DNA of 32,000 bases from Acaryochloris marina MBIC11017 (GCF_000018105.1 NC_009932.1:60001-92000); one strand, 5' to 3'. Positions 6,657 to 23,112 are shown, numbered from the stretch's first letter. The notes: a model not told the origin generated them from the sequence alone. Numbers and translations: made by a program.

Positions 6657-6699
6657 ACTGATCATTGCCTTAATCTATGGCATCCTTATCGTCCTGCAT

Positions 6700-7959: not shown

Positions 7960-7965
7960 ACCGAT

Positions 7966-7995
7966 TTGCTGCTCAAAAGACATCTTGCCTATGTT
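7966..7995 (+). promoter_or_regulatory. conserved promoter-like box, copy 2
   Basis: TTGCTG at 7966-7971 and TATGTT at 7990-7995, with an 18-nt spacer CTCAAAAGACATCTTGCC. A GGGAGA RBS and ATG 8026 follow. Confidence 0.55.
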
Positions 7996-8025
7996 TATTG
8001 CAACCGTGACTAAAGGGAGAAAATC

Positions 8026-8505: not shown

Positions 8506-8907
8506 GAAAATATCTCGCTTCCTCCCCCTATTAGTTGTTTCAGCCTTACTGCTGAATATCCTTGTCTGTTTTTCCTGGTTTACCCAAGGAGCCAGAGCGC
8601 AAGCCCCCTCTCAGGTGTATATCCAGACTGACTCCGGGTTAGTGGTCAAAGGTCAGCCCGTGGACCCCCTCTATCGCAGTGATGAAGTCGTGATGCGGTT
8701 TGCCCAGGAGTTTGTCTCCGTGGCCTACACCTGGCCGATGAATGGCGAGGGTCACCGTGAAGGCAAGCTGATCTACCCCCTGCCTATGTACACCCAAGCT
8801 TTCAAGATCCATCCTGATATTCGTTCCCAGTGGTTAGGGCGTCAGCATGTCGCCTATGCCAAAGCCAAAGATCCCTTTGCCAACTATGTAGGCCAGTCCC
8901 ACCATAC
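8498..8907 (+). pseudogene. 5' part of IS-disrupted bitopic membrane gene (VirB8/TrbF-like candidate)
   Basis: ATG 8498 overlaps the stop of the upstream gene (ATG 8474 is an alternative). Short N-terminus, one TM helix (FLPLLVVSALLLNILVCFSWF), then a soluble domain. The reading frame runs into the IS left IR and stops inside it at 8924-8926. Confidence 0.6.
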
Positions 8908-10299
8908 CCCTCTTTTATCACTTTAGACAGAGAGAAAATCAGGATGCTTGAGCAATTTCCTCACCAGTGGACAGCAAAATGCCTCCATCTTTGATGTGAG
9001 TTGCTCAAACCCCTTTTTCAAAGCACGGCTGGGAAAGACTTCTAACCAGCGCTTTAGAAGATTCCAACTGATTAACGGTTGAATGATCAAGCGCACATTA
9101 TTGAGCAGATTCTTCCACCCGTTTTGGTTATCCCACCAAGGATGCTGCGCAAAGTGTTGATGTGCCACTGGACAAGAGTCATTGAAGACATCAGCGAACA
9201 AACTCACCATCAAGAAAGCGCTCATCACTATCTCCCACCACTTTTCAATTTGTTCGTAGTGCGTCATGCGAAAATCAGCCCAACCCAAGGTATCTTTAGA
9301 CTGTTTGAGACCATACTCAATCCAAGTTCTGAAGCCATAGCAATCCCCAATTTCATCCAGCTTGATCTCGGGTGCCGCTGCCATGACATAAGAGGTTGAG
9401 TTCTCTGGTAGCGTTTGGGGGTCCGTGGTTAATAGCCAATAGCGCTTCTGGTGGTGTCGCTGGCCATAAATGATCTCTTGCCTGTAACGAGTTTCAGTGG
9501 TGCCATTGCTGAAGGTTCGTTCAAATGACTGCCACGGTTCGGCAAAGACTGCTTGTTCTGCGGGTAACCACACCGCATGATTGCTACGAATCGCTAGGAT
9601 ATAGGGCAGCTTTAACTCCTCTAAGACATTCACAAAGTTTGTTTGAGCTTCCCCATACAAGCTGTCAGCCAGGACGAGCTCAAAGCAAAAGCCCATCCCT
9701 TGCAACTGTCGGATCATTCCAGCAGCAATTTGGGGTTTGCTGAGATACTCATCCTCCTCTTTAAGACGTTCTCGGGGTTTGTACACTTCAAAGGACAAAG
9801 GCAAAATCATCCCTTGAAACAGCCCGTAGGCAGTGACTGCGACGATGCCATTCTCTTTCTTGCCCACATTGCCGATATACTGCCGTTTCACATAGTCGGT
9901 ACTCTTGCCTTTTTTGCAATCGCCCGTCTCATCGATCAATAGAATTAACCTGCGCCCATCCAGTATTTTCAAGATGATGTCCAATCTCTTGTCAGACAAA
10001 TGTGACGCTACCCAAGGTGATTCACTCAGAAAATGATGCAGGCTTTGATGGTTCTCCAAGCCCACTGCTCTTGCAATGGCGGGCAATGATTTACGTTTGA
10101 TATCACTAATCATCCCCAGATGGAGATGCTTGAAGGCTTCATAACTGCGGACTTGGGGAAATAACTCTGCAAATAGTTGGCAGTACTCATCAACAAAGCC
10201 AATGGTTGGTTCTGGACTTCTTGAAGCTGACATCACTCATTAGAAAAATAGAAACTGAGAATAGTCTATTTTTTATCTGTCTAAAGTGATAAAAGAGGG
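8908..10299 (-). mobile_element. IS701-family (IS4-superfamily) insertion sequence, 1392 bp, apparently intact
   Basis: Perfect 23-bp terminal inverted repeats: CCCTCTTTTATCACTTTAGACAG at 8908-8930 and its reverse complement at 10277-10299. They are flanked by a 4-bp direct duplication ATAC (8904-8907 and 10300-10303). A single transposase ORF fills the element. Confidence 0.85.
8923..10236 (-). CDS. IS701-type DDE transposase (437 aa)
   Basis: Full-length ORF between the IRs. Motifs LLIDETGD, LVLADSLYG and RTWIEYGLKQSKDTLGW resemble the D, D and E regions of IS701/IS4-type DDE transposases. Family assigned by recollection. Confidence 0.85.
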   Translation of the reverse strand: MMSASRSPEPTIGFVDEYCQLFAELFPQVRSYEAFKHLHLGMISDIKRKSLPAIARAVGLENHQSLHHFLSESPWVASHLSDKRLDIILKILDGRRLILLIDETGDCKKGKSTDYVKRQYIGNVGKKENGIVAVTAYGLFQGMILPLSFEVYKPRERLKEEDEYLSKPQIAAGMIRQLQGMGFCFELVLADSLYGEAQTNFVNVLEELKLPYILAIRSNHAVWLPAEQAVFAEPWQSFERTFSNGTTETRYRQEIIYGQRHHQKRYWLLTTDPQTLPENSTSYVMAAAPEIKLDEIGDCYGFRTWIEYGLKQSKDTLGWADFRMTHYEQIEKWWEIVMSAFLMVSLFADVFNDSCPVAHQHFAQHPWWDNQNGWKNLLNNVRLIIQPLISWNLLKRWLEVFPSRALKKGFEQLTSKMEAFCCPLVRKLLKHPDFLSV

Positions 10300-10571
10300 A
10301 TACAAAGACCACCATTACGGGTGCCAAGATTGAGCGATTAGATGCAGAAGCCCATGAATGGGATGTCAGGCTGTATGCCACCCAATACCGTTTTGATGGT
10401 CAAAACAACCTGATTTATAACCCCGTCAAGGTCAATAAAATCTTGACCTTACGAGCTGTGCAAGGGTTTAGGCCCAACTGGCAAATTGCCGATACGGACC
10501 TGGGCCGCATGATTGATGATGCCCTGCATTCAGAGCTATTGATTACCAACATTGTGGATCTGCCCACCTAG
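10300..10571 (+). pseudogene. 3' part of the IS-disrupted VirB8/TrbF-like gene
   Basis: Removing 8908-10303 joins ...CAC CAT AC to A AAG ACC... in frame (…SHHT-KTTITGAKIERLDAEAHEWDVRLYATQYRFDG…IVDLPT*). The frame stays open to TAG 10569-10571, giving a restored protein of about 225 aa. Confidence 0.7.
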
Positions 10572-10604
10572 AACAACCCAGAGAGCAAAGACAAGGAGCG
10601 AGAC

Positions 10605-11981
10605 ATGCCGACAGATAAACGCCAGGTCGAGGAAGCCAAAGCCATATTGTTGGATGACCCGGAACTCAATGAACTCTTAGAAGAGAACAAGATTTCTGAA
10701 GGTCGGCCCATCAACGATCTGGAGAAAATGGTCGATCCAGGGGATAAAGTCAAACACCCCTACTATCTCCAGCCCTGGTTCAGGATTGGGAGTATCGCCA
10801 TCCCCCTGATCATCATGGGGTTTGTGGGCTACAAGATTTGGGGACCCAAACCCCAGAAGGTGATGGCCTTGGGGGACAAGGATAAGCAGATTATCGAGCT
10901 GACGGAAAAGCTTCAGCAGTCTGAATTAGAGAAAGCCCAGCTCACCCAAGACAATATGGGATTGACTCAGGCCGCAGAGTTAGAGCCATTTAAACAGCAA
11001 CAGAAGCAGCTCAAGCAACAACAGCTCAAGCAGCAGGCTCAGAAACAACAAGCCAAACAGAAGAAACCCGTGCCCGTGCGTGGGAAACCCATTCAGCGCC
11101 AGAATACCGTTAGTATTCCTCGTCGGCTCTATCGCAACCCCACTCCCAAACGTAGCTATACTCCAGCTAAGCCCAGTCCTTCCCTACTGGCGAATTCTAA
11201 GCCTAGCGGCCCCTCCTTGAGTGAATGTGTGGGTTATGTAGAGCGGAATATCAACGTTCCAGGCTGTAACCGCTATCAGATCAGTCAAAAACCCCAGTCA
11301 TCATCTCAGACCGCTTCCATTGGCAAAAACCCGACAATCCCTCGTCCCGCCTATACCCCAAGACCCCAGACTAAGCCCGTTAAGTTGGCCTTTGCCAGTC
11401 AAAGCAAGGCCAAACCTCGAACTAAAGTAAAGCCTGACTATCAGGTGAACTTTATGGCAGGGGAGATTCAAACGGTGGATCAGTTTGAGGCTGAGTTCTA
11501 TGGTGCAGGCCAGAGCGCTGCTGCACCGACGCGCACCTCAATGAAGGCCAAAGTGATTGACCATGTGGAATGGATATCGCCCCAAGAAGCTCAACAGATG
11601 GTCATTCCTCTGAAAATTACCAGTGGACCCCACAAGGGCCAGACGGCTGAGGCCAAGATTCAGCAGATGAATGGTTTGCAGTTCACGGCTTATGTCACCC
11701 GCATCAATGGTCAAGAGATTGAACCAGGGACGATGGAAGTGAGGCGCAAGAATACCAAGTATCTGAGATCGCAACTGAAGCGTCAAGGAGGAGAGTCTTT
11801 CGGGGATAGAGTGATGGGGACAGTGGCTGCAATTGGTGGGGAGATTGCCACAGACCAGTTAGCGGATGTGCGGGGAGGGAATCACATTTCCCGACTGGTA
11901 TCTAATCCTCAGCGTAGGACCAGAGAGGTGACGCAGTATTGGCGGTTTGATGGGGAGGTGGAGTTGGTTCCAGTGGGGTGA
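10605..11981 (+). CDS. bitopic membrane protein with coiled-coil, Gln/Pro-rich linker and C-terminal globular domain; VirB10/TrbI-like candidate (458 aa)
   Basis: AGGAG RBS. One TM helix (IGSIAIPLIIMGFVGYKIW), a KQQ-rich coiled-coil stretch, a long Pro/basic linker and a ~140-aa C-terminal domain. Topology and position after the VirB8-like gene match VirB10. No diagnostic motif was verified. Confidence 0.5.
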   Translation: MPTDKRQVEEAKAILLDDPELNELLEENKISEGRPINDLEKMVDPGDKVKHPYYLQPWFRIGSIAIPLIIMGFVGYKIWGPKPQKVMALGDKDKQIIELTEKLQQSELEKAQLTQDNMGLTQAAELEPFKQQQKQLKQQQLKQQAQKQQAKQKKPVPVRGKPIQRQNTVSIPRRLYRNPTPKRSYTPAKPSPSLLANSKPSGPSLSECVGYVERNINVPGCNRYQISQKPQSSSQTASIGKNPTIPRPAYTPRPQTKPVKLAFASQSKAKPRTKVKPDYQVNFMAGEIQTVDQFEAEFYGAGQSAAAPTRTSMKAKVIDHVEWISPQEAQQMVIPLKITSGPHKGQTAEAKIQQMNGLQFTAYVTRINGQEIEPGTMEVRRKNTKYLRSQLKRQGGESFGDRVMGTVAAIGGEIATDQLADVRGGNHISRLVSNPQRRTREVTQYWRFDGEVELVPVG

Positions 11982-12154
11982 TTTGCAAATACTGAAGTAG
12001 TTTGACTATTCTGGGTTACATATTCCAAAATATATATTTTCTTCCCCCTCTTGAGATTAAGGTTAGGGAAGGGTTTCATTCTTCATTCCACTTCTGGTTA
12101 ATTTAATTTACACCTGGCTGCTTAATCTAAGACTGTCTGCGTTAAAGAAGCATT
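11901..12154 (+). repeat. repeat module copy a: 3' end of VirB10-like gene plus downstream spacer
   Basis: The last 27 codons (11901-11981) and the following spacer recur at 12745-12935 and, more divergent, at 16005-16221. The spacer includes a GGGAAGGGTTTCATT hairpin region. Confidence 0.75.
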
Positions 12155-12649
12155 ATGGCTAGAAAATCTAAGGATTTTAGTGAATTAATCCATCAGAAGC
12201 AGCGTCAAGAACAAAAAAACGCAGACTCATTTGAGCGGCTGCAGAACAAAGTCAAGGAAATTGCGGGAGAAGACGTTTCCCGAAACATGGTGTTCAACCC
12301 CCCGGATGTGAACAAGATGTCAGAAGTTTTGCAAGAATTAGTTGCACCATACGTACAGACAACCCCCAGTATTTCAGAGCTTGATAATTTTTTGAAAATT
12401 GCTGTTTTGGCTTGGAATATTGCCTTGACATCCCCGGAAGAGCGCCAAGTTGCACTAAAACAGATCTTTTCAGAAATGGCTTCTAGCACTGATCAGGACA
12501 TCATAGAGGGCTTGAAAAGCTTAGTCGAGGAACTGATTGAACGCAAAGACCACTATTTCTGGTCTTGCCAACGCAGTATTACTAGCTTTGATTTACAAGA
12601 TCAAGGGGATAGCTATTTTCTTTCAGTCGCCTCTACTCTTGAAGAATAG
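12155..12649 (+). CDS. 164-aa cytoplasmic protein, unknown family (paralogue 1)
   Basis: ATG ORF, colinear and roughly half identical by eye to ORF 16222-16716. Shared segments include MARKSK.FSEL, KMS.VL.E, IAV.AWNIAL, IERKD.YF and QGDSYFLSVAS. No TM helix or signal peptide. Confidence 0.65.
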   Translation: MARKSKDFSELIHQKQRQEQKNADSFERLQNKVKEIAGEDVSRNMVFNPPDVNKMSEVLQELVAPYVQTTPSISELDNFLKIAVLAWNIALTSPEERQVALKQIFSEMASSTDQDIIEGLKSLVEELIERKDHYFWSCQRSITSFDLQDQGDSYFLSVASTLEE

Positions 12650-12744
12650 ATTCCTGCTATATCAATAGATTTCCCTTCCAAGGGCCATTCTGTCTATCCT
12701 TTAACTCTGTCCAATTTTTCTGGGCCTACAAGCGTACCTTCTGT

Positions 12745-12935
12745 TCTAACCCTTAGCGTAGGACCAGGGAAGTGACGCAGTACTGGCGGTTCGATGGAGA
12801 GGTTGAGTTGGTTCCAGTGGGTTGAATAGCCTAAAAGAAGACAGCTTTTCTACCCTTCGATTTATTCTGGAAGTATGCATTCTTCTCCCTCCCTGACCAT
12901 GCGTTGGGAGGGATTTCGTTGCAGAGCCTCATTCC
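12745..12935 (+). repeat. repeat module copy b: orphan 3' end of a VirB10-like allele (pseudogene remnant) plus spacer
   Basis: 12745-12825 aligns codon for codon with 11901-11981 with 9 differences. Eight are synonymous third-position changes and one converts CAG to TAG. The downstream spacer aligns with 16053-16150, including the hairpin TCCCTCCC/GGGAGGGA (12886-12913). Confidence 0.75.
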
Positions 12936-13364
12936 GTTCAAAAAACCGTCCAACTTAAGGGTAATTGGACAGCAAGTTCTGTTGGATGTTTCCAAGATAT
13001 ATGTATCACAGGTTAGAAATTTTCAATACCTTTTGATTAGGACTAACTAAACAAAAACATAGCAAGAGAGATACTTGCTGAATATAGTGAAGTTTGATGC
13101 TCACGCGTTATATGTTCGGTTGGTTCGTCTTAAATTTTCAAGGAACCCCACGCTCACCATGTCAAGCAAGGTGGGGTATTAGCAGGTATCAGATTTATCG
13201 GACCTTTGAATTGTTACATCCATTGAATTCATAAAACCTTAAATTTTCTCGATAAATTAAATAAAAATATTCCTTCATTTTTAGGAATATATAGACACTA
13301 ATTCAGCTTCTCGATCTCAAACGCGAAATCTAAAAATACAACTCCTCTTGAAGGGAAGTATTGA

Positions 13365-13620
13365 TCAATGACGGGATGTCTTGAACTTCCGCAATGCTCT
13401 AAAGGGTCTAGTAAAAAGGTATTTCAGAAGATCTCCGAAAGGTAATTCGTATTTGGAATGAGAGTTGCTAGCGGATCCGTAGAATCTGCGTCCGCATGAT
13501 TTACAGCGATAAGGCTGAATCCGAAAAAAACAGAAGTACATTTTCATGGAATCCTCTGAGTCGAGATTCGGTAAGATAACGACTTCTACATCTAGGACAG
13601 CGCTTAACCACAGCTCTCAC
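13365..13620 (-). pseudogene. frameshifted double zinc-ribbon (CxxC...CxxC) small protein gene
   Basis: The upstream frame reads (V)RAVVKRCPRCRSRYLTESRLRGFHE. The downstream frame (ORF 13365-13547) reads ...FFRIQPYRCKSCGRRFYG.... The two join into one ORF if the A7 run at 13524-13530 (T7 on the coding strand) is shortened by one base. Confidence 0.45.
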
Positions 13621-13914
13621 TTTCGTACTTGGTTTAGGTAGCTTCGTTAATATTGTGGCAGTTGAGTATAGAAAGAGTCGTAATTTTCATGACATTCCTG
13701 TGTATTTTATTTGGAATGAAAGGAGTTTGAAGCACCAGTTTTATATCTCGGAGTATACTTCGAATAAGGGAAATATATTTTAAGGCACTCCATCGCTGGA
13801 CTGAGCGCTTTCTGTGTAGTGGATAAGTAAGAGTAGTTCTACCCGATGAAAATATCATCAGATTGATAGAGTTGGTGGAGTGATTGAAAGAAGCACAATT
13901 TGTCTCAATGAGCT

Positions 13915-14370
13915 ATGGCATATAACATTCAGACGCTATATGAAACAGATGTAGTCAAGTGGTCTTTGAAGCAGGCAAAACTACTGAAAGCTCGTAAGTT
14001 TGATTTGGTAGATCTTGAAAACCTAATTGAGGAAATAGAAGATGTGGCGAGAAGGTACAAGGACGTAATCGAAGGACAGATTGAAAATCTGCTGGTGCTC
14101 ATCCTTACTGTTAAATACAAGCCTCAGAAGCAAACAAAAAGTTGGGATAAAGACGTCCTGACCAGTCAAGCTGAAATCCATAAGTGGATTGAGAAAGAGC
14201 CCTCCCTGCATCGTCATGCTCTATCTAGTTTCAACTTTTGCTACAAGTATGCTCGAATAAAAGTATCTATTCTCCATCAGATTTCCCTTGCATCGATTCC
14301 TGAGGAATGCCCAGAAGATGTCAGGATAACAGCTTGGGAATTGATTAATAGAGATGATGGGATGGACTAG
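13915..14370 (+). CDS. DUF29-family protein (151 aa)
   Basis: The N-terminus LYETDVVKWSLKQAKLLKARKFDLVDLENLIEEIEDVARRYKD matches the remembered DUF29 signature (LYE.D...W...QA.LL....F..LD..NLIEEIE). Confidence 0.75.
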   Translation: MAYNIQTLYETDVVKWSLKQAKLLKARKFDLVDLENLIEEIEDVARRYKDVIEGQIENLLVLILTVKYKPQKQTKSWDKDVLTSQAEIHKWIEKEPSLHRHALSSFNFCYKYARIKVSILHQISLASIPEECPEDVRITAWELINRDDGMD

Positions 14371-14503
14371 CAACCTGCTGATCTACGAGAATTCAAGTTA
14401 TAGACCTTGATATGCAATCTGGCAGCCCTAAATTAGATTTACACCTCATGGGCTATTGAGTAGTCCTTCTCATGTACGCATTCATAGGATGCCTATTTTA
14501 GCC

Positions 14504-15244
14504 ATGTCTAATGATGGATATTTTGGTGAGGCAGTTGCTGAAACTTACGACAACGATGTAGATTCCTTTAACCCTGACGTAATTGAACCTGTCGTTGATT
14601 GCCTGAAAGAGCTTGCTGGGAATGGTAGGGTTCTTGAATTTGGCATTGGAATAGGCCGAATCGCATTACCCCTAGCAAAGCGAGGTGTTGAAGTTCATGG
14701 AATCGATCTTTCTGGGGCTATGCTCTCTAAACTTGCTGAAAAAACGGGTGGAGATCGTATTCCCGTCATTCAAGGAGATTTTGCTACCACGAAATGCGAA
14801 GGCTCATTCTCCCTGGTTTATCTGATATTCAATACCATCATGAATCTGACGACTCAAGATGCACAAGTTCAATGCTTCCAGAACGCAGCCGCTCATCTCG
14901 AACCTGGAGGACATTTCATTATCGAGGTTATAGTCCCTAGCCTTCAGCGAATACCCTTCGGTGAAACCAAGCATGTATTTGAATTCGGGGATGATCATTG
15001 GGGAATAGATGACTATGATTTCGTCTCTCAAACCTTAGAGTCGCATCACATGATGGTGAGAGATTCAAAAATAGAACTGTCCTGTATTCCATGTCGCTAT
15101 GTCTGGCCATCAGAACTAGATCTGATGGCGAGGATTGCCAATTTAGAACTGAAAGGAAGGTGGGGAGGCTGGAAGAACGAACCCTTTACAAATACCAGTC
15201 GTTCTCACGTCTCAGTTTGGGAAAAATCTAGTGATGGCGATTAG
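14504..15244 (+). CDS. class I SAM-dependent methyltransferase (about 246 aa; alternative starts 14456 TTG, 14489 ATG)
   Basis: Motif I VLEFGIGIGRIALPLA followed by the acidic loop HGIDLS, and motif post-II LVYLIFNT. This is a typical small-molecule Methyltransf_11/25-like layout. The substrate cannot be inferred. Confidence 0.8.
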   Translation: MSNDGYFGEAVAETYDNDVDSFNPDVIEPVVDCLKELAGNGRVLEFGIGIGRIALPLAKRGVEVHGIDLSGAMLSKLAEKTGGDRIPVIQGDFATTKCEGSFSLVYLIFNTIMNLTTQDAQVQCFQNAAAHLEPGGHFIIEVIVPSLQRIPFGETKHVFEFGDDHWGIDDYDFVSQTLESHHMMVRDSKIELSCIPCRYVWPSELDLMARIANLELKGRWGGWKNEPFTNTSRSHVSVWEKSSDGD

Positions 15245-15290
15245 ACGCCATTAGAAATTGCTGGCCTCAACCCCTGACATATCAACCCAT

Positions 15291-15320
15291 TTGCACCTCA
15301 AAGGTCATCCTGCCTATGTT
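15291..15320 (+). promoter_or_regulatory. conserved promoter-like box, copy 3 (orphan copy)
   Basis: TTGCAC at 15291-15296 and TATGTT at 15315-15320, with an 18-nt spacer CTCAAAGGTCATCCTGCC. It is nearly identical to copy 4 but is followed only by a gene remnant. Confidence 0.5.
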
Positions 15321-15354
15321 TCCTCTGTAGCTCATCTACAGGGAATTTCTGTTA

Positions 15355-15477
15355 GTGACCCTCACTGTTTTCAAGCGATGCCCTACTCCCATCGTTTCTC
15401 TGATTAACATGGTTTTCCAGACTCTTTATTCATCGATATCACACGTCAAAGGTTTTCCCTTTGCCACTGTTGAATAA
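15355..15477 (+). pseudogene. orphan 5' remnant of a hydrolase-gene allele (signal-peptide region only)
   Basis: GTG 15355 opens MTLTVFKRCPTPIVSLINMVFQTL..., compared with MTLTALKRCPTLIASILIAASQTL... at 17211. Nucleotide similarity runs from about 15285 to about 15430 and then stops. A stop codon occurs after 40 codons. Confidence 0.6.
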
Positions 15478-15985
15478 AATCAGGGAAGCCTGAGAACTGC
15501 TGTTTGGCTGCAGAGACAATTGAGTCACCCGTTGGCGGGCAATCGATACTTAGATTAGTAGCCAGCCAGTTACGCAATGGCTGAGTAGCGTTCCAACCTG
15601 AGGCTTTCTGGGTAAGGTCGTCCCACTCCAATTCGTCATATCCACAACCCAATAAGCGGCAGAATTCTAGCGAATTTGTAGCAAGAACCAGCAGTTCTCC
15701 CTCAGATCCAAGAACGATAACTGGAGCAAGCTCGGTATCGAGGTTATCTCGAAGCCAAAGAGCATATACGGAACCCGTAGAGCCACGGCCAAACACAGCA
15801 AACTGTTGCTGCATTGCCACGTCATTAGGAAACCAAGCCGCCATATCATCATCACCTATGGTACTAATCTCGAAGCAACCACTGATCGGATAACCATGAT
15901 TGTCCAAAAAGTCGCATAGGCAGCGGATTGGCCGTGGCATTATGACACCAGGTGGGAATTTTGATTCGACTTTATCTGCGAGCAT
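15446..15985 (-). CDS. SMI1/KNR4 (SUKH superfamily)-like protein (about 179 aa from ATG 15985)
   Basis: The core FAVFGRGSTGSVYALWL...APVIVLGSEGELLVLATNSLEFCRLL matches the remembered SUKH pattern (F..dG.G..y....... pV...dhE....va.sf.eFl). The longer ORF to 16066 would overlap repeat copy c, so ATG 15985 is preferred. Confidence 0.5.
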   Translation of the reverse strand: MLADKVESKFPPGVIMPRPIRCLCDFLDNHGYPISGCFEISTIGDDDMAAWFPNDVAMQQQFAVFGRGSTGSVYALWLRDNLDTELAPVIVLGSEGELLVLATNSLEFCRLLGCGYDELEWDDLTQKASGWNATQPLRNWLATNLSIDCPPTGDSIVSAAKQQFSGFPDFIQQWQRENL

Positions 15986-16004
15986 AATGGGCTGAAAAAG
16001 AAAG

Positions 16005-16221
16005 CAGGATTGGTGGTTTGATGGCGAGGTTGAGATTGTGCCGTTCTTTTGATTTGCTACTACCAAAGTAATTTGTCAGTTCTTGGATTTATTCTAAGAA
16101 TATGCGTTCTCCCCCTCCCTAACCATGCTTTGGGAGGGATTTCATTGCTCATTGCCAGTTCTTGTTAATCTAGTGTGCATCTGGCTGCTTAATTTCAAGA
16201 AGACTCATCAGAAGAACCATT
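16005..16221 (+). repeat. repeat module copy c: divergent orphan 3' end of a VirB10-like allele plus spacer
   Basis: 16005-16052 encodes QDWWFDGEVEIVPFF*, compared with QYWRFDGEVELVPVG* at the end of the 10605-11981 gene. The spacer carries the hairpin CCCTCCC/GGGAGGG (16113-16138) and ends ...CTGGCTGCTTAAT...CATT-ATG, as upstream of 12155. Confidence 0.65.
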
Positions 16222-16716
16222 ATGGCTAGAAAATCTAAAGGTTTTAGTGAATTACTCCATCAACAACAAGATGATGAACAAACAACCGTTCAATCCTTCA
16301 AGCGGTTGCAAAAAAAAGTACAGAAAACAACTGGAAAAGACCTTATTAAGGACATAGCCACTAGCCCAAAGGGCGTTGCCAAAATGTCTGACGTTTTGGA
16401 GGAATTTATTGATCCCTACAAAGAAACAACATCTAGTTTTGAAGATGTGAAATCCTTGCTGAGTATTGCTGTTTTTGCCTGGAATATCGCCTTATTACCC
16501 GATGAGGACCGCCAAGAAGCTATAGAAATTATTTTGTCAGAAGCTGCCTCTGGGATGAACCAAAAGAATCGAATGGAGTTGCAAACCTTAATCCATCAGA
16601 TGATTGAGCGTAAAGACTGTTATTTTTCAAGCTTTCAGCGCTATATTGCTAATTTTGACTTGCAGCCTCAAGGAGATAGTTATTTCCTTTCCGTTGCTTC
16701 TTCTCTCAAAGAATAG
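16222..16716 (+). CDS. 164-aa cytoplasmic protein, unknown family (paralogue 2)
   Basis: Same length and colinear with 12155-12649. The start contexts match (CATT ATG GCT AGA AAA TCT AA). Confidence 0.65.
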   Translation: MARKSKGFSELLHQQQDDEQTTVQSFKRLQKKVQKTTGKDLIKDIATSPKGVAKMSDVLEEFIDPYKETTSSFEDVKSLLSIAVFAWNIALLPDEDRQEAIEIILSEAASGMNQKNRMELQTLIHQMIERKDCYFSSFQRYIANFDLQPQGDSYFLSVASSLKE

Positions 16717-17085
16717 ACTTTATATTATCTTCTCAATCAGTGTGAATTAGATGAGCCTAATGCTATGGGCGCTGTGATGGGGAAGTTTAACCGTTCTCAG
16801 TTAGAAAAAGAGGAAACTTCTTTTTCCGCAATCACGGCAACGGTACGGTCTGATTCTGATAACCAATAGAAGCTTTTCAGCGCAGTTTTTATGTCTAGAC
16901 CGTTTTAGGGCAGTGCTATTACAGTGACTACATCTCTTAGCCATGAGTCTACCCAGACTTTTTATCTCAAGTCTAAAGGAAGAGCTAGATAGAGTCAGTT
17001 AAGAGTAATACACATACCTTTAAGCTGACTAAAATCTATGGGGTAATTTGCCTATCTTTCGTCATATATTTTTCTAGATTTTTTC

Positions 17086-17117
17086 ACCCACTCGTTGATT
17101 TCAGCGAGTGGGTTTTA
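17086..17117 (+). terminator. putative intrinsic terminator
   Basis: 9-bp stem ACCCACTCG (17086-17094) / CGAGTGGGT (17105-17113), a 10-nt loop, then TTTA. It lies about 370 nt after the 16716 stop and 30 nt before box copy 4. Confidence 0.45.
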
Positions 17118-17146
17118 TGCGGATATCTAGGTCACCAAGATTCAAT

Positions 17147-17176
17147 TTGCACCTCAAAGGCCATCTTACCTATGTT
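17147..17176 (+). promoter_or_regulatory. conserved promoter-like box, copy 4
   Basis: TTGCAC at 17147-17152 and TATGTT at 17171-17176, with an 18-nt spacer CTCAAAGGCCATCTTACC. It is followed by the hairpin at 17178-17200 and GTG 17211. Confidence 0.55.
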
Positions 17177-17210
17177 TCCTCTGTAGCCCAACTACAGGGG
17201 ATTTCTGTTT

Positions 17211-20200
17211 GTGACCCTCACTGCTCTCAAGCGATGCCCTACCCTCATCGCCTCCATCCTCATCGCCGCTTCCCAGACCCTTCCTGTCTGGAGTCAGACT
17301 CAACAAGTCGGGTACTATCCAGCCCCCGAACTTGCCAATGTTCCTGGGCTAATCTATGACCCACCCCCGGAAGCCCAAGAGGTTTCTTTCTCTAGTCTCC
17401 CCGGTGCCAGCTCTCCTGGTTGGGTTGTCGTGGATGACCCCAACCTCACCTATGACCCCAACCGTGCTTGGCCCGCTGGAGCCACACCAGATCGGATCAT
17501 CAAATTTGGAGACTTAAAGCAAAACCCTCAATTTGCAGGCTTCACTAAACACAGTCTTAGAGACTTTAACAATGCCATTGGCACCGACATCGGCGGAGTG
17601 CCCATCGGCCAGGTTGAACTAGTCAATGGCCTCAACCTCGAACAGGTCAAAGACATTTACAACAACGGCGATATCAAACTCAAAGACTCCGCTCCCCTAT
17701 TCCAAGCCGTCGTCGGAGTCGTCCTCGACCCCACAGGTGCCCAGAAGCAGCTTCAACGCAATGCCCTGAGTACAGGTAAGAAAGCTCTGATCAACGAACT
17801 GAATAAAAACCCAGCCCTCAAAGATATCCCCTTTGAAGACCTCCTAGATGGCAATTGGAAAGGGGCCATCAAAGAAGGTGAACAAGTCTTACTTCGAGAA
17901 ATTGGCAATGACATTCCCGCAGAGCTGCGCCGCTTACCCGTCGGTTCACTCACCATTGAAGTCATAGAAGGCAACTGGGAAACCGCCCGACAACGCGCCC
18001 AGAATTATGCCATTAATGAGATCCAAAACTTTACCCTCAATGAAATCATCAAAGAATTCCCCGAACTCAAGCGAGTACCGATTGGGGGCATCGTCCATAT
18101 CGCCAATCAGCCCCTAGACCAAGCCCTTCCTCAACTGGCAGATATGGCCCTAGAACAGTTCCCTGGCATAGAAGACAAGATCCTAGGATCAGTCCCTGGC
18201 CTCGGTGATACGGCCCTTGGGTCCATCGTCGCTCCCGTCATCATTACCCTGTTTAACAGAGATATCTTAGGTAAATTCGATGCGGCCCATAGTGGTCAGG
18301 ATGGGCCAGAAGAACATTATGGTAGGCCGATCAGTGGTGGCACCCCTGACGCCAAATTCAAGCCAGAACATGGGATTAAGAGTGCCACGAGCAGGAGCAA
18401 GCGACCAGAGCGAGGGTTCCCTCGGTTTGAGATGGCCCCTCTTGAACCAGGAACTACGATACTTGGTGATCCACTTCTAGGAAAAGAGTGGATGAGTCGA
18501 GATCAGGAAGTCCCAGGATGTAAAGGGTTTCTCTGTCTGTTTGGAAACAAAGAACGCGCAGGCATCAAACCCTTTGGCAATGGCTCTCTCACCAAATTCA
18601 GTCTGGGAGACATCACGGAATACGATGACAAACCCGCAGAAGCAAGGCTATGGATCGACTTTCAGATCTGCGTCACCATCCTATTTGAGAAGCACTGCAC
18701 GGCTCATATCTTTAGTTTCAAAACCCCGTGGAAAGTCAAAGTGGGGGGCATCTTCCCGATCCTCGCTCGTCGTAGAGTCCAAGATTACTTTCCAGGGATT
18801 AACGAGAAGACTAGAACCATTGACTTCTGCCAAGTCCCTGACTTCTTAGGGGGAACGACAACAGCGGGGAATAGTCCCCCACCGAATAACAATGCCCTCT
18901 ATGGTCACTTCGTCTATGCGGAAACCACAGGTCAATTGGTCAACGTGACCTCCGTCGATGGGGTACAGGAAACCTTAGCCCCAGATGCAGCCCAAGCCTT
19001 TGAGCAAATGGTGGCAGATGCAGCCGCTCAGGGATTGGATATCAAAGCGATTTCAGGCTTTAGGGACAATCAGACCCAACAGCAGCTATTCGACCTCCAG
19101 ACTCAAAGGCAAGGCTCTCCTGAAGCAGCGGCTAAAGTGTCAGCCCCCGCAGGTCACAGTGAACATCACACGGGGTTAGCCGTGGATGTGGGTACGAATG
19201 CCAACCCCACGCTTGAGACTCGTTTTGCGAATACACCTGAGTATGCCTGGATGCAACAGAATGCTGGGAAGTATGGGTTTGAGTTGAGCTTTCCAGAGAA
19301 CAATCGTCAGGGAATCAACTTTGAGCCGTGGCACTGGCGATTCGTGGGTACGAGTCAAGCCCAACAGACCTTTGCGAATGCTGCTGGAAGTCATACAGAC
19401 CATAATCAAGGCAATACTTCAACGCCTTCAGATCCTCAACATCGTTTGAGACAGTATCTCGCCCGTATAGCCTTGGGTGAATCATCTGGGGGAACGGATA
19501 TTGACGCCCATCCCAATACTGGGGCTTATGGGGAATATCAGTTTATCCCTGAGACTCGCAAAATAATATTGGATCGGTATGGTTTAGATGCTTGGTCCAC
19601 GAATAAAGCCGAACGCGATCAGGCGACCGTCGCATTGATCCAAGCCTTTGGTGACGAGATTGGGACAGACATTCTTGGGTTGATTGAGGCGGGTGAGTTT
19701 GAGCAAGCAGATCAATTGCTTGGTCAGCATGTCTACAGTCGAGCGGGGAATGTGATTCGGTATGGTCAGTTCACCTCTTTACCGGGTGGAGCTGAACAGC
19801 ATGACATCTGGAAAGACCCAGCAATTCTGGCTCAATATGGTCCGAATGGGAATGCAGGGCAGAATCCATTGTTGGCTGCAATCAATACGAATTCACAGCG
19901 GTGTAATCCTACGTTGTTGGTGAGTAATAGTCCCTTTGTTCAGGGTTCCGGTGTGGCCTCTGGGGAGTTACAAGATCCATTATCGGGTCAGCAATATAAG
20001 GTCACCAGCGATTATGGATATCGAACCGATCCAGTTTATGGAGGAACGGGCTTCCATTCAGGCATAGACTTAGCTTGGGATGCTGGGACACCTATAAAGG
20101 CGGCAGATGGGGGCGTAGTTGTTCGCTCAGAGTGGTTTGGAGGTTATGGCAACTATATCCTGATAGACCACGGAAATGGGTTGGCTACTTGGTATGGGCA

Positions 20201-20411
20201 CAATCAAAACAATTATGTGTCTGTAGGCGATAAAGTGGACCCAGGGCAAGTTATTGGAACTGTGGGTAGCACAGGGAAATCAACTGGGCCTCACATTGAC
20301 TTTGGAGTTAAAGAAGGTTTCGTGACTGGGGACCCAAATTCGGGCACCATCGTAAACCCAAGGAAATACGTTAACCTCCCCCCTTTAGGCGGTTACAGCC
20401 AACCATTCTGA
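17211..20411 (+). CDS. secreted multidomain peptidoglycan hydrolase: unknown N-terminal ~560 aa + VanY/M15B D-Ala-D-Ala carboxypeptidase + lysozyme/SLT-like + M23 endopeptidase (1066 aa)
   Basis: GTG start with a signal-like N-terminus. VanY motifs SEHHTGLAVD and EPWHWRFVG (about nt 18900-19350). LGESSGG...GAYGEYQF resembles the catalytic E-S region of lytic transglycosylases (about 19440-19800). M23 motifs FHSGIDL, WYGHN and STGPHIDF (about 20010-20330). Confidence 0.85.
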   Translation: MTLTALKRCPTLIASILIAASQTLPVWSQTQQVGYYPAPELANVPGLIYDPPPEAQEVSFSSLPGASSPGWVVVDDPNLTYDPNRAWPAGATPDRIIKFGDLKQNPQFAGFTKHSLRDFNNAIGTDIGGVPIGQVELVNGLNLEQVKDIYNNGDIKLKDSAPLFQAVVGVVLDPTGAQKQLQRNALSTGKKALINELNKNPALKDIPFEDLLDGNWKGAIKEGEQVLLREIGNDIPAELRRLPVGSLTIEVIEGNWETARQRAQNYAINEIQNFTLNEIIKEFPELKRVPIGGIVHIANQPLDQALPQLADMALEQFPGIEDKILGSVPGLGDTALGSIVAPVIITLFNRDILGKFDAAHSGQDGPEEHYGRPISGGTPDAKFKPEHGIKSATSRSKRPERGFPRFEMAPLEPGTTILGDPLLGKEWMSRDQEVPGCKGFLCLFGNKERAGIKPFGNGSLTKFSLGDITEYDDKPAEARLWIDFQICVTILFEKHCTAHIFSFKTPWKVKVGGIFPILARRRVQDYFPGINEKTRTIDFCQVPDFLGGTTTAGNSPPPNNNALYGHFVYAETTGQLVNVTSVDGVQETLAPDAAQAFEQMVADAAAQGLDIKAISGFRDNQTQQQLFDLQTQRQGSPEAAAKVSAPAGHSEHHTGLAVDVGTNANPTLETRFANTPEYAWMQQNAGKYGFELSFPENNRQGINFEPWHWRFVGTSQAQQTFANAAGSHTDHNQGNTSTPSDPQHRLRQYLARIALGESSGGTDIDAHPNTGAYGEYQFIPETRKIILDRYGLDAWSTNKAERDQATVALIQAFGDEIGTDILGLIEAGEFEQADQLLGQHVYSRAGNVIRYGQFTSLPGGAEQHDIWKDPAILAQYGPNGNAGQNPLLAAINTNSQRCNPTLLVSNSPFVQGSGVASGELQDPLSGQQYKVTSDYGYRTDPVYGGTGFHSGIDLAWDAGTPIKAADGGVVVRSEWFGGYGNYILIDHGNGLATWYGHNQNNYVSVGDKVDPGQVIGTVGSTGKSTGPHIDFGVKEGFVTGDPNSGTIVNPRKYVNLPPLGGYSQPF

Positions 20412-20802: not shown

Positions 20803-21081
20803 TTTTGGCTGCCCGGTAAATCTTGTCTGTGGTTTCGTTAGTCTATTTCTAGCGTGTTCCCATGCAAATTACCGTTCAATCTCTCATGCTACCTAAAGAA
20901 CAGGTTGGACTCTGCCAAACCATCTGTTGTTCTGATTCAGAAAGGGGGCATGCCGAGATACGTGTAAAAACATGCAAGATGGTGCCAGAAGCTATATACA
21001 TCAGTGCTTTTGAAGATTTAGCTTTTAGACTTTTAGATCGCCTCATAGGATGTCAAACAGCTCCGAAAAGCTTTGCCTAGA

Positions 21082-21291
21082 CTAGATTTCGTCAAACTTA
21101 ATCGGTAGTTGAATGGCTTGTTCAAAAGGTACAGGTACGGTCTCCAGATCCAAGACAAAATCTCCAAACCGCTTCAACTGCTCAGTCAGATAAGGACTCA
21201 TCGTTGCCAGTGCCTCACGATCAATCGGATATCCCTCCGCACTGAGCTGTTGCAATGCCAGAGACATATCAACGGCATTCTGGAAAATCAC
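21082..21291 (-). pseudogene. Tn3-family transposase C-terminal remnant (left arm)
   Basis: SAVIFQNAVDMSLALQQLSAEGYPIDREALATMSPYLTEQLKRFGDFVLD aligns with the remembered Tn3 TnpA C-terminus NAICVWNTVYMEKAVEELKARGEF..L....PLGWEHINFLGEYKFE. Only about 70-110 codons remain and no N-terminal part is present. Confidence 0.6.
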
Positions 21292-21429
21292 AGCGCTGAT
21301 TAAATTACCACACAGCGGCTTTCTTTCAATCCCTCCAATACTTCTACTTCCTACTCCGCTAGGTAGTGGTTTGTGATGGTTTTCGACTGGCCAATGCCCT
21401 TCGGAGAGACAAGAACTGCCAAGTAAAGG

Positions 21430-21478
21430 TTGACAAGTGACTGGTGGTTGCTTATTATGTGACCAGTGGTTACTTATT
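21430..21478 (+). promoter_or_regulatory. sigma70-type promoter with tandem 20-bp operator-like repeats upstream of the TetR gene
   Basis: TTGACA (21430-21435), a 17-nt spacer, then TATTAT (21453-21458). The direct repeats GTGACTGGTGGTTGCTTATT (21437-21456) and GTGACCAGTGGTTACTTATT (21459-21478) match at 17 of 20 positions, have a 22-bp period, and overlap the -10 and the predicted start site. Confidence 0.55.
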
Positions 21479-21483
21479 TATCT

Positions 21484-22140
21484 ATGAGTTGGGCAAGAGC
21501 ACGGAGTCAAAGCCAAAAAGCTGCTAGGCGAGAGGAAATTCTTGAAGCAGCTCAGTCTCTTTTCTCTGAGCTGGCATATGAAGAAATTAGCCTCAACGGG
21601 ATTGCCCGTGAAGCAGGAATTAGCAAAGCCAATATTTATCGCTACTTCTCGACCCGAGAGGAGATTTTCTTAGTCATTTACGAAGCAGAACAAATTGTAT
21701 TTGTGCGCGCATTAATAAACCGACTTCAGCAAATGGCATCGGTGGATAACGTATCGGAAATGACTCAGGTTTGGGTCGAAACACTGCTGCAACATGAAAC
21801 ATTACTCAATCTGATTCCCCAACTTTCAATCTCCATGGAGCGTAATTCCTCCGTTGAGCAACTGATTAAATTCAAAAAACAAGGTTATACCACCTACCAA
21901 GAACTATTAGAGAGTTTGGTATCGGTGTTCCCCCGCCTCAATCAGCAGCAGTGGATCATGGTGATTCAATGCACCTACTCAATGATTGCTGGCCTTTGGC
22001 CCCTCTCTAATCCCAGTGAAAATTTGCTGGAAGCGCTGCGGCATCCAGAAGTCAATCAGCCCCCCTGGGAATTTGAATCGACGATGACGTATGGACTATC
22101 CGCGTTAATTCATGGGGCGATCGCAATCAATAACGAATAA
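21484..22140 (+). CDS. TetR/AcrR-family transcriptional regulator (218 aa; GTG 21466 is an alternative start)
   Basis: N-terminal HTH REEILEAAQSLFSELAYEEISLNGIAREAGISKANIYRYFSTREEIF is a canonical TetR_N signature. Confidence 0.85.
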   Translation: MSWARARSQSQKAARREEILEAAQSLFSELAYEEISLNGIAREAGISKANIYRYFSTREEIFLVIYEAEQIVFVRALINRLQQMASVDNVSEMTQVWVETLLQHETLLNLIPQLSISMERNSSVEQLIKFKKQGYTTYQELLESLVSVFPRLNQQQWIMVIQCTYSMIAGLWPLSNPSENLLEALRHPEVNQPPWEFESTMTYGLSALIHGAIAINNE

Positions 22141-22202
22141 TTTACCCGATAGCAAAGCCGTTCAATATCAACCCTCAATCACCACAATCAGGAGTCAAAC
22201 TC

Positions 22203-23048
22203 ATGAATCAGAAAACGGTCCTAATCACAGGGGCAAGTTCAGGATTTGGTAAACTGGCCGCCCTGAAGTTTCAGCAATCTGGCTGGAATGTGGTGGCTAC
22301 AATGCGTTCTCCGGAGCGCGAAACGGACCTCACACAACTTGAAAATGTAGTTGTAACCCGACTCGATGTAACTGAACCAGCCAGTATTGAAGTCGCGGTT
22401 AAATTGACAATCACCACCTTTGGCACCATTGATGTGCTGGTTAATAACGCAGGCTACGGTGGCCACTCCCTGTTTGAGCAAGCAACAGACGAAAACATTC
22501 GGGCAATGTTTGAAACCAACGTCTTTGGCGTCATGAATGTGTCCCGTGCCGTTTTGCCGTTTATGCGTCAACAAAAATCAGGCTGCATCATTAACGTAAC
22601 GTCCATGGCAGGTATGCTCGCCGCACCCACCATCTCAATTTACGCCTCAACCAAGCATGCTGTTCAGGGCCTCACGGAAGGTATGGCCTTTGATTACAAG
22701 CCATTTAACATTCGAGTAAAAAGTGTTCTACCTGGGGCCTATCCGACGACCCGGTTTAATGCCAATACCAGCGACATCCTTAAAGCTGGAGATGCCGAAC
22801 TAGTGGCTCATGCTGAGAAGTTGCATACTCACTTGCAAGACGTCGCTCAGAAGATGGCCAACCAGGGTGGCCAAGTTGCTGATCCTCAAGAAGTAGCCGA
22901 CAAAATTTTTGAATGTGCGACCCAAGACACCCCCATCAACAACCCGGTCGGTTCTGATGCAGAAATGCTAGCAGGGATGATCGCTAAAGCTGACTCTCGC
23001 CAGGCCTTTATCGACCAAGTTACCCCATTACTAATGCCGCCAGTGTAA
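22203..23048 (+). CDS. short-chain dehydrogenase/reductase (classical SDR, 281 aa)
   Basis: AGGAG RBS. TGASSGFG cofactor motif, NNAG, a catalytic Ser in the VTSMAG context, and YASTKHA (YxxxK). Confidence 0.9.
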   Translation: MNQKTVLITGASSGFGKLAALKFQQSGWNVVATMRSPERETDLTQLENVVVTRLDVTEPASIEVAVKLTITTFGTIDVLVNNAGYGGHSLFEQATDENIRAMFETNVFGVMNVSRAVLPFMRQQKSGCIINVTSMAGMLAAPTISIYASTKHAVQGLTEGMAFDYKPFNIRVKSVLPGAYPTTRFNANTSDILKAGDAELVAHAEKLHTHLQDVAQKMANQGGQVADPQEVADKIFECATQDTPINNPVGSDAEMLAGMIAKADSRQAFIDQVTPLLMPPV

Positions 23049-23112
23049 TAAGTCACCCGCCAACACAGTCATCACACGATTCAACGTCATCACGCTCATC
23101 AAGAGGTCAGAT

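Follow-up and report, generated by a model that had tools for sequence, protein, structure and literature searches.

HS1–HS5 of the SXT/R391 ICEs are examples of variable-region hot spots of conjugative elements. At the 3' ends of tRNA and tmRNA genes, genomic islands can stand in tandem, with the target 3' end recurring between the insertions. Displacement arrays are found at the V. cholerae T6SS effector-immunity loci, for which an upstream homologous anchor combined with a downstream illegitimate join has been proposed, and where exchanges are mostly clean replacements and relic-leaving events form a rarer class (Kirchberger et al. 2017, PMC5361080). C-terminal displacement in rhs and CDI loci is attributed in that paper to Jackson et al. 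2009.

The window, by which we mean the whole 32,000-nt stretch of Acaryochloris marina MBIC11017 DNA that was analysed, carries a conjugative transfer cluster, as indicated by a coupling protein at 27909–29747 (TraG-D_C, T4SS-DNA_transf); PLSDB typing of close relatives gives MOBF / MPF_T. Within this T4SS cluster, the segment 11982–17144 is an accessory-gene hot spot of an Acaryochloris plasmid, probably built by displacement with segments of sister plasmids. The region contains the following features:

10605–11981, plus strand: intact VirB10-like gene, 458 aa (open reading frame); its final 81 nt are tail a
11982–12154, plus strand: spacer a, with a variant hairpin at about 12039–12073, 5' of 164a (from alignment)
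12155–12649, plus strand: 164-aa gene, copy a (164a), a conserved cyanobacterial plasmid protein
12745–12825, plus strand: tail relic b, displaced VirB10-like 3' end with an in-frame TAG at 12754–12756, 89% identical to tail a
12826–12935, plus strand: spacer b, with a CCCTCCC/GGGAGGG hairpin at about 12886–12913 followed by AUUUCGUU, terminator-like
13365–13611, minus strand: zinc-ribbon gene b, carrying a frameshift within a T7 run (three-frame translation)
13915–14370, plus strand: DUF29 gene, cargo (Pfam PF01724, E 6e-31)
14456–15244, plus strand: class I SAM-dependent methyltransferase gene, cargo (Pfam Methyltransf_25, E 5e-15)
15264–15394, plus strand: head relic b, which reaches 13 codons into a hydrolase allele from the GTG at 15355
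15446–15988, minus strand: SUKH-like gene, 180 aa from an internal ATG, flanked by head relic b and tail relic c
16004–16052, plus strand: tail relic c, 49 nt from a VirB10-like allele of greater divergence, reading QDWWFDGEVEIVPFF* (E 6e-9)
16053–16221, plus strand: spacer c, with the same hairpin as b at about 16113–16138 and a conserved region 5' of 164c
16222–16716, plus strand: 164-aa gene, copy c (164c), intact, 53% identical to 164a in amino acids
16801–16944, minus strand: zinc-ribbon gene c, 47 aa, intact
17145–17250, plus strand: functional head c, with box at 17147–17180, leader hairpin at 17177–17201 and GTG start at 17211
17211–20411, plus strand: intact cell-wall hydrolase gene, the right conserved flank (Pfam VanY E 1e-41, Peptidase_M23 E 4e-31)

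As in the T6SS and rhs arrays, displaced 3' fragments of other functional alleles stand behind the intact gene in its own orientation, together with accompanying genes, and in this the array matches the 'sequential displacement' arrays of both systems. It differs from them in that the displaced gene encodes a structural secretion-channel protein and no toxin, the relics are the conserved last 49–96 nt with a hairpin where those systems have variable toxin tips, displacement has also affected the other flank (hydrolase 5' end and promoter), and the hosts are multi-plasmid cyanobacteria. The cargo consists of DUF29, methyltransferase and 164-aa proteins instead of effector-immunity pairs; we found no toxin tip with cognate immunity, and only the SUKH-like gene, itself weakly supported, resembles an immunity gene. 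The locus resembles SXT/R391 HS1–HS5 in placing unrelated accessory genes at a fixed intergenic backbone position with the backbone genes undisrupted, but here stacked relics of the flanking genes record the exchanges and no element-encoded recombination system was found. The direct repeats of a target 3' end between successive insertions recall tRNA/tmRNA islands, from which the window differs in having no integrase, variable relic boundaries and relics of the other flank. Like an integron cassette array, it has gathered unrelated genes in order at a single site, the older ones lying farther from the entry point, but it has no intI, attI or attC-like sites and its repeats are pieces of neighbouring genes.

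The left flank was identified by fold and location. The AlphaFold model of the 458-aa protein is confident at residues 310–400 and 443–456 and shows a confident C-terminal beta domain and a terminal beta hairpin, and Foldseek matched it in the PDB to the T4SS outer-membrane core complex (7spj/7spc) and the Dot/Icm dome (9ngw_A) with E 2e-4 and probability 1.0. The top four matches (7spj, 7spc, 9ngw and 7muq), whose chains we take to be VirB10 homologues, have E values of 2e-4 to 9e-3, probabilities of 0.99–1.0 and target TM-scores of 0.38–0.46. Searches of this protein against Pfam, including TrbI, gave no family at E ≤10, and a seven-sequence profile found no match among PDB sequences. Membership of the VirB10/TraB/DotG type is thus indicated by fold and location but not by sequence profile. 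The hydrolase gene (VanY/M23) is syntenic across all relatives. The gene immediately 5' of the VirB10-like gene is now split by an IS, and the sole transposase (8923–10236) is part of an IS that is distinct from the array and bounded by inverted repeats of its own. Because of this split gene, the transfer cluster may be decaying, and part of the structure could therefore be neutral debris.

Self-BLAST of the window together with a repeat search identified four repeat pairs. The VirB10-like 3' end is present three times (11901–11981, 12745–12825 and 16004–16052) and the promoter box with the hydrolase 5' end twice (15264–15394 and 17145–17250), as a first-pass annotation of this DNA had proposed. 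Tails a and b align over their full 81 nt (E 1e-23), 12777–12922 is 73% identical to 16004–16148 over 148 nt, and 15289–15394 is 90% identical to 17145–17250 over 106 nt. The remaining pair, 11933–12650 and 16004–16717, is 68% identical over 728 nt, and the a/c repeat therefore spans the spacer and the entire 164-aa gene. The annotation was right that tails and spacers are repeated but ended these repeats too early, at 12154 and 16221, and the 164-aa genes, which it gave as slot fillings, are not independent cargo. As members of the duplicated unit, the 164-aa gene and probably also the zinc-ribbon gene look like resident slot genes. The two zinc-ribbon copies are homologous once b is frame-corrected (45% over 44 aa, E 1e-8); the frameshift in b may reflect either a pseudogene or a homopolymer sequencing error. 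Of the three slot fillings that had been suggested, only b is a complete tail-to-head allele, a has no head, and the SUKH-like gene assigned to c in fact lies outside any such interval. There is also a possible fourth micro-relic at 16764–16786, 3' of 164c.

A codon check of tails a and b bore out the reported 9 differences in 81 nt, eight being synonymous at the third position and one a CAG>TAG change (position 11910 in copy a, 12754 in copy b). Because all eight non-stop differences are synonymous, a and b diverged inside working genes. Tail relic b was recovered by nhmmer (E 1e-14), and its nearest real tail is that of the related cluster L023 (94%), whereas relic c is nearest to the tails of L021/L026 (85%). 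These comparisons support the view, already advanced for b in the annotation, that b and c are what is left of diverged alleles that once functioned. Head relic b comprises an upstream motif, an intact promoter box (15291–15324) and a leader hairpin (15323–15343), and shares 90–91% identity with the functional heads found in the window and in the related clusters pREC4 and S15. All independent tail relics retain ≤96 nt of the 1377-nt gene (81, 49–60, 96 and about 22 nt).

The CCCUCCC/GGGAGGG stem of the spacers, 7–9 bp long, is kept in six of eight spacer copies, and five of the eight fold better than shuffled sequences. The spacer b hairpin has a predicted dG of -22.8 kcal/mol (z -2.1), whereas that of spacer a folds no better than shuffles. 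The U tract 3' of the hairpins is interrupted (AUUUCAUU), and a consensus terminator scan of the window did not list them, because their loops exceed the limit of the scan. The 34-nt promoter box occurs five times on the plus strand of the window, against 0.01 occurrences expected by chance. In close relatives this box precedes every transfer operon, and a search at ≤5 substitutions did not find it in the empty-slot lineages described below.

Short-read contigs of relatives often end about 300–400 nt 3' of the VirB10-like gene, which could point to repeats that were collapsed or made chimeric in assembly. Against this, the array copies share just 68–90% identity, and the independent short-read contigs L014 and L015 match 11531–12784 at 100%, spanning the joint between 164a and tail b (the L014 contig was found again in eight samples). 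The orthologous head-SUKH-tail composite is moreover present in a complete plasmid record from A. marina S15. An assembly artefact is effectively refuted by these observations.

We surveyed the same junction in 12 related T4SS clusters that have the same two backbone genes on either side. In four distant clusters (pREC1, pMB04, pMB08 and L010), whose VirB10-like proteins are 38–54% identical to that of the window, the junction is empty (60–170 nt). In all eight close clusters (pMB06, pREC4, S15, L009, L021, L023, L024 and L018) it is filled with unrelated genes, and all-against-all BLASTP of the cargo proteins found only the SUKH-like and 164-aa proteins to be common to different elements. The same position is thus occupied by unrelated content in several relatives and exists in an empty state, in agreement with the defined cargo hot spot of the annotation; neither invariant content in relatives nor an assembly artefact, which it had named as fatal to its reading, was found.

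Single clean flanks are present in five filled slots (pMB06, pREC4, L009, L023 and L024), and relics in the window, S15, L018, pREC2 and pMB05. Positions 15264–16149 of the window are collinear with 7907–8707 of the complete S15 plasmid at 75–81% identity, and S15 has orthologues of the head relic, of the SUKH-like gene and of the tail relic. This conservation shows the b/c joint to be old, and at least this joint did not originate in the present element. Further evidence that the joint arose elsewhere comes from the Logan contig L018, in which the methyltransferase and SUKH-like modules occur in the opposite order, with a tail relic in decay and 177 nt left of a hydrolase 5' end. The slot-c module is also found on pREC2 at 92–97% identity, outside any transfer cluster and with just about 20 nt of its tail and about 19 nt of its box remaining, and pMB05 carries a tail and 164-aa gene module, likewise outside any conjugation cluster.

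From these end states, rather than from observed recombination events, we infer a displacement mechanism. The permissive junction would lie between the terminator-like hairpin at the end of the VirB10-like gene and the promoter-like box of the hydrolase, both with putative functions. Because the hairpin ends the one gene and the other has its own box, insertions should spare transfer-gene expression. Sister plasmids carry diverged copies of both flanking genes, and in the usual case one crossover in each flank would swap the content and produce the clean slots. Occasionally a homologous crossover at one end, in the VirB10-like or hydrolase gene, would be accompanied by an illegitimate join at the other, through homology-facilitated illegitimate recombination or unequal exchange between co-resident plasmids. 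A new gene end would then arrive with the incoming DNA, and the resident one, terminator or promoter included, would be pushed inward as a dead relic. Recombination through the flanks alone, which the annotation had invoked to stack the fillings, can only replace content; each stacking needs an illegitimate join.

In the order of events that we infer, tail c would have been displaced by a segment whose end was the SUKH-like gene, a state similar to that of L018. An entire slot allele, running from tail b and its hairpin through the zinc-ribbon, DUF29 and methyltransferase genes to head b, would then have been joined at the SUKH-like 3' end, giving a state common to the S15 plasmid, and tail b would finally have been displaced by tail a with its spacer and 164a. 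Displacement is supported by retention of the hairpin 3' of the stop codon in most copies; against it stand the possible decay of the transfer cluster and the lack of any change of identity along the VirB10-like gene that would mark a crossover point. Random illegitimate joins do not predict uniformly short relics, whose shortness may reflect some constraint or a favoured site. The relics of neighbouring gene ends would thus record successive recombination with sister plasmids, and the pile-up of cargo at the junction is real and well documented, yet an ordinary kind of plasmid evolution.

The repeated gene ends could also have arisen if islands entered the VirB10-like 3' end by site-specific integration and brought a replacement end, as at tRNA genes, in which case the tail copies would represent the attL/attR repeats that flank tandem islands. 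Successive segments are indeed bounded by direct repeats derived from the end of a gene, every relic is short, and pREC4 has a gene for a 200-aa tyrosine recombinase immediately 3' of the tail. However, a scan of slot genes, those of the window included, revealed no recombinase domain, the left ends of the relics vary (-81, -49 to -60, -96 and about -22 nt) with no common core, att-like direct repeats are absent around the cargo of pREC4, pMB06, L023 and L024, and the head relics, being derived from the 5' end of the opposite flank, would be left unexplained. We consider such integration highly unlikely. It is also improbable that the tail-to-head segment was duplicated in tandem in situ and then diverged neutrally, with gain and loss of cargo and no input from other plasmids. 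The recurring unit order (tail, hairpin, in some units a 164-aa gene, minus-strand zinc-ribbon gene, head) and the possible fourth micro-relic would fit such a history, but the differences between a and b, all synonymous apart from the stop, would not. In addition, 164c is nearer in nucleotide identity to the pREC2 copy (97%) than to 164a (67%), 164a is 73% identical to the pMB05 copy, and tail c has its nearest real tails in other elements, so that the present small sample points to window copies grouping with those of other plasmids.

Two further ideas concern what the relics do rather than how they arose by displacement. Retention of the relics for function, which is compatible with displacement, is a tentative possibility: tail-hairpin copies might terminate or insulate cargo transcription, and the head b promoter might act antisense into the SUKH-like gene. 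In favour of this, the coding part has decayed but the hairpin survives in b, c, the relic of S15, pREC2 and the first of the L018 copies, the head b box has no mismatches to the consensus pattern and its leader hairpin is retained, and the bias towards short relics would be explained if selection acts only on the terminator-proximal part. On the other hand, the hairpin has decayed in pMB05 and the second L018 copy, and only one compensatory pair was seen among the copies. More doubtful is the idea that the tail-hairpin and box-head repeats serve as portable homology handles for RecA-type recombination of cassettes, at which the reversed module order of L018, the modules outside clusters on pREC2 and pMB05 and the shortness of the relics hint. 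Such handles, if real, would duplicate, reorder and export cassettes among the many co-resident Acaryochloris plasmids, as a recombinase-free analogue of the integron made from two transfer-gene ends.

Among the slot genes, 164a conforms to every one of the 17 columns that are invariant in an alignment of 27 family sequences; against Pfam it gave one sub-cutoff match and nothing reaching threshold, and the fold of the 164-aa protein found no match in the PDB. The SUKH-like protein is 77% identical in amino acids to its S15 orthologue, which is located alike, and has homologues at 55–70% identity in Planctomycetes, one of which UniRef calls SMI1/KNR4. Neither the window protein nor its close homologues matched Pfam PF09346 (SMI1_KNR4), and the distant homologue P0063 (40% identical) scored E 1e-4, with 23.3 bits against a cut-off of 25.4. 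The methyltransferase has a copy with 87% identity in contig L018, where the arrangement differs.

The window lies on an A. marina plasmid, its 164-aa and VirB10-like proteins being identical to A. marina entries at NCBI. Among annotated plasmids, the nearest relatives come from A. marina and Acaryochloris sp. and are of type MOBF / MPF_T. Synteny with the Acaryochloris plasmids pREC4 and S15 and with the compared contig L024 places the transfer backbone at 747-8907, 10302-11983, 17145-20400, 27881-30173 and 30816-32000, with the following interruptions:

8908-10301, insertion sequence (IS)
11984-17144, slot array under study
20.4-27.9 kb, second cargo block

The array fills the slot between a VirB10-like gene and a hydrolase gene. 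The left flank (10605-11981) has neither a Pfam match nor a PDB sequence match, and because its predicted C-terminal beta domain resembles T4SS outer-membrane core chains (7spj, 7spc, 9ngw and 7muq; E 2e-4 to 9e-3), the name VirB10-like is a reasonable one. The last 16 residues of this protein form a confident beta hairpin in the structure model, and they are kept even in lineages that are only 38-50% identical. The right flank is a 1066-aa hydrolase with VanY and M23 domains (Pfam). In pMB06 (locus L001, ~4240-4372) the annotated VirB10-like gene ends early, at 4341, and only with a frameshift does it extend to the conserved tail, whose end is at 4372. The IS of the window encodes a DDE_5 transposase (8923-10236, -), has inverted repeats of 35 nt and shows what looks like a target duplication, ATAC. 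It cuts a 225-aa gene that directly precedes the VirB10-like gene (halves 8498-8908 and 10302-10568), and the transfer system of the window is probably inactivated by this insertion.

A repeat search and self-comparison of the window recovered all the repeats named in the first-pass annotation. Two small zinc-ribbon ORFs that proved homologous (b and c, both -; E 1e-8) are a further duplicated component. Read along the + strand, the array consists of:

tail a (3' end of the intact VirB10-like gene), spacer, 164a (first 164-aa gene)
tail b (relic, with stop), hairpin, zinc-ribbon b (frameshifted, -), DUF29, methyltransferase, head b (relic hydrolase 5' end)
SUKH-like gene (15446-15988, -), between head relic b and tail relic c
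tail c (relic), hairpin, 164c (second 164-aa gene), zinc-ribbon c (-), head c, leading into the hydrolase gene

Allele b is the only one in the window that runs in full from tail to head. Tails a and b are 89% identical over 81 nt, tails b and c 73% over 148 nt, and heads b and c 90% over 106 nt. The a/c duplication extends for 728 nt at 68% identity; it starts 49 nt ahead of the stop codon, crosses the spacer and takes in the whole 164-aa gene. A codon comparison of tails a and b returned precisely the nine differences claimed earlier, eight of them synonymous and one CAG>TAG. No third, decayed 164-aa gene was found in slot b by tblastn. A 23-nt stretch downstream of 164c (16764-16786) agrees with tail a in 19 of its 23 positions, a score reached in 0 of 2000 shuffles, and on this similarity may be a fourth, nearly erased tail relic; it was not recovered by an nhmmer profile of real tails, and nor were the decayed L018 and pREC2 copies. 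If it is a true relic, the duplicated composite would comprise tail, 164-aa gene, tail, zinc-ribbon gene and head. The zinc-ribbon gene b (13365-13611, -) lies in two frames that meet at a T7 run (13525-13531), either as a true pseudogene or through a homopolymer sequencing error.

The spacer after the tails contains a hairpin, CCCTCCC...GGGAGGG followed by AUUUCAUU, which b, c and most of the copies on other plasmids possess and which is altered in a; a tail copy therefore comprises the gene end and its likely terminator. A head copy comprises a 34-nt box, a leader hairpin, the start codon and 13 codons. The box (TTGCAC-N17/18-TATGTT, TTGCACCTCAAAGGyCATCyTgCCTATGTTTC) occurs five times in the window:

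1652-1685, +, 34-nt box
7966-7999, +, 34-nt box
15291-15324, +, 34-nt box
17147-17180, +, 34-nt box
30839-30872, +, 34-nt box

It stands upstream of each transfer operon in the window and in all close relatives, was not found in the distant clusters with empty slots, and looks like a family-specific promoter or operator. Two of those clusters, pMB04 and pMB08, begin with a sigma-70-family factor gene. No RNA family reached the Rfam gathering threshold anywhere in the window.

The relics have their closest counterparts elsewhere. Among real tails, that of L023 (94%) comes closest to tail b, followed by those of pREC4 and L024 (92%); tail c comes closest to the L021/L026 type '...EIVPVF*' (85%) and has since undergone Y>D, R/K>W and V>F substitutions. 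Of the 164-aa genes, 164c clusters with the copy on pREC2 and 164a with the one on pMB05, and both window genes retain all invariant residues of their family. These affinities and the intact family residues argue that the window copies come from different alleles and are not a drifted local duplication, in keeping with the earlier proposal that the relics derive from diverged, once-functional alleles. Duplication in situ is opposed both by the synonymous-only divergence of tails a and b, the new stop aside, and by the affinity of each copy to other plasmids. An assembly artefact, which the first-pass annotation had named as one of the outcomes that would overturn its reading, is ruled out by the divergence of the copies, by two independent contigs that are identical across the a/b joint and by the orthologous composite in S15. 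Site-specific integration was also rejected: the window slot contains no recombinase, the boundaries vary and att-like repeats are absent elsewhere, with none that is convincing around the cargo of pREC4, pMB06, L023 or L024. A 17-nt inverted match between the tail end and the box in L024 was judged to be at chance level.

The b/c joint is an old one, and the modules have also travelled. The stretch at 15264-16149, made up of head relic, SUKH-like gene, tail relic and hairpin, is collinear with S15 7907-8707 at 75-81% identity; b was therefore stacked on c before these plasmids diverged, and both sub-slots have changed content since. The L018 locus reads tail, hairpin, ~550 nt, SUKH-like gene, decayed tail relic and decayed hairpin, then a 177-nt hydrolase 5' relic without a box, a methyltransferase 87% identical to that of the window, and a box; the same modules are thus present in another order, with the hydrolase flank displaced too. 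Between a helicase gene and metE, pREC2 carries window 16030-17163 (92% identity overall, rising to 97% within 164c); this is the content of slot c cut down to ~20 nt of tail and ~19 nt of box. In pMB05, a tail relic of 96 nt, containing a TAG in frame, and a 164-aa gene lie between toxin-antitoxin pairs.

We surveyed the same junction in 12 other clusters. It is empty (60-170 nt, without the box) in pREC1, pMB04, pMB08 and L010, whose VirB10-like proteins are 38-54% identical to that of the window, and filled in every close relative (62-92% identical), each time with different content:

pMB06: DUF4062 / COR / LRR genes
pREC4: short tyrosine recombinase, RecB-like nuclease, VapC pair, three hypotheticals
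S15: hypothetical, alpha/beta hydrolase, SUKH-like gene, small M23 ORF
MAG contig L009: 534-aa ORF
NIES-2412 (L021): 263-aa ORF and LRR gene
L023: pentapeptide-repeat gene
L024: two small ORFs
L018: SUKH-like gene and methyltransferase

All-against-all BLASTP found only the SUKH-like protein (S15 versus window, 77%) and 164a/164c in common. The variable content at this position that the first-pass annotation had predicted for a cargo hot spot is therefore present, as unrelated cargo at the same junction in close relatives. Relics are the minority outcome: they are present in the window, S15, L018, pREC2 and pMB05, and flanks are single and clean in pMB06, pREC4, L009, L023 and L024. Three independent short-read contigs of relatives (L022, L025 and L026) end 285-401 nt past the VirB10-like gene, which may reflect repeats or strain-level polymorphism at the junction. 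Species-representative genomes gave no match to a single-protein query and only three MAG contigs to a profile query; JGI metagenomes gave none to the tail DNA pattern and protein profile. A comparison of Acaryochloris plasmids (PMC9324425) does not mention the region.

A double crossover in both conserved flanks would swap the content cleanly; stacking would arise from one homologous and one illegitimate join (homology-facilitated illegitimate recombination). In the window, a segment ending in the SUKH-like gene would have displaced tail c, a full b allele would then have been joined to the SUKH-like gene at its 3' end, and tail a with 164a would finally have displaced tail b. The stronger decay of c than of b fits this order. 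The same mechanism, termed 'sequential displacement', has been proposed for the orphan arrays found in T6SS and rhs loci (PMC5361080), which the window array resembles in this respect. The observation behind the earlier interpretation is confirmed. Its main points hold, namely relics of diverged functional alleles and a cargo hot spot supplied through recombination among related elements; the unit boundaries, the age of the joints and the need for an illegitimate join are to be corrected. The junction probably tolerates insertions owing to its position between a terminator-like hairpin and a promoter-like box; lineages with the two genes 60-170 nt apart and no box carry no cargo. Tail relics span at most 96 nt of the 1377-nt gene in every independent case, which would be very unlikely if joins fell uniformly along the gene (by our own estimate, ~(96/1377)^4). 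This could reflect selection for the part next to the terminator, selection against longer repeats or a preferred site of joining. No fixed core was found at the tail-relic boundaries, and sliding identity along the VirB10-like gene gave no clear break marking a crossover point.

These results locate the entry point, and a rough route, of accessory genes into the transfer region of Acaryochloris plasmids, which hold much of the niche-adaptive gene content of the genus. They provide a dated series of recombination scars usable for reconstructing exchanges between plasmids, and highlight two conserved uncharacterised elements, the 34-nt promoter-like box and the 164-aa plasmid protein family. 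This is no new class of mobile element or mechanism; it is a known kind of locus newly documented in a little-studied plasmid family.

The 164-aa family (motif MARKSKGF...KMSEVL...AWN...LSVAS) occurs in cyanobacteria, among them four Nostocales strains that carry it on plasmids; on a Dolichospermum plasmid the gene lies directly 3' of parAB. Its members here are:

12155-12649, 164a
16222-16716, 164c
6001-6501 of L013, 164-aa gene

No family reached the Pfam threshold for this protein, and its confident model (pLDDT 78) had no PDB fold match. PADLOC identified no defence system among the cargo proteins, only a generic methyltransferase, a Cas4-like nuclease and candidate-family domain matches. 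The 534-aa ORF of L009 (8269-9873) has no Pfam or PADLOC match; by eye, its N terminus resembles DUF4157-type toxin-associated domains. Homologues of the SUKH-like protein on Planctomycetes chromosomes (Pirellulaceae, Thalassoglobus and Blastopirellula) are 55-70% identical, which suggests a recent transfer of the gene between phyla. In the methyltransferase gene (14807-14967), stretches of ~90-160 nt are 71-79% identical at the DNA level to methyltransferase genes of Sinorhizobium and Rhizobium megaplasmids.

The second cargo block (20943-27788) separates the hydrolase operon from the coupling-protein gene, and carries genes for TetR, SDR, alpha/beta hydrolase, AraC and two more SDR proteins. 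Its ends are 244-nt inverted repeats (20952-21195 and 27536-27779; 89%). The block matches, at 98.6% identity, a pREC2 segment at whose end a transposase is annotated, and it resembles a transposable unit.
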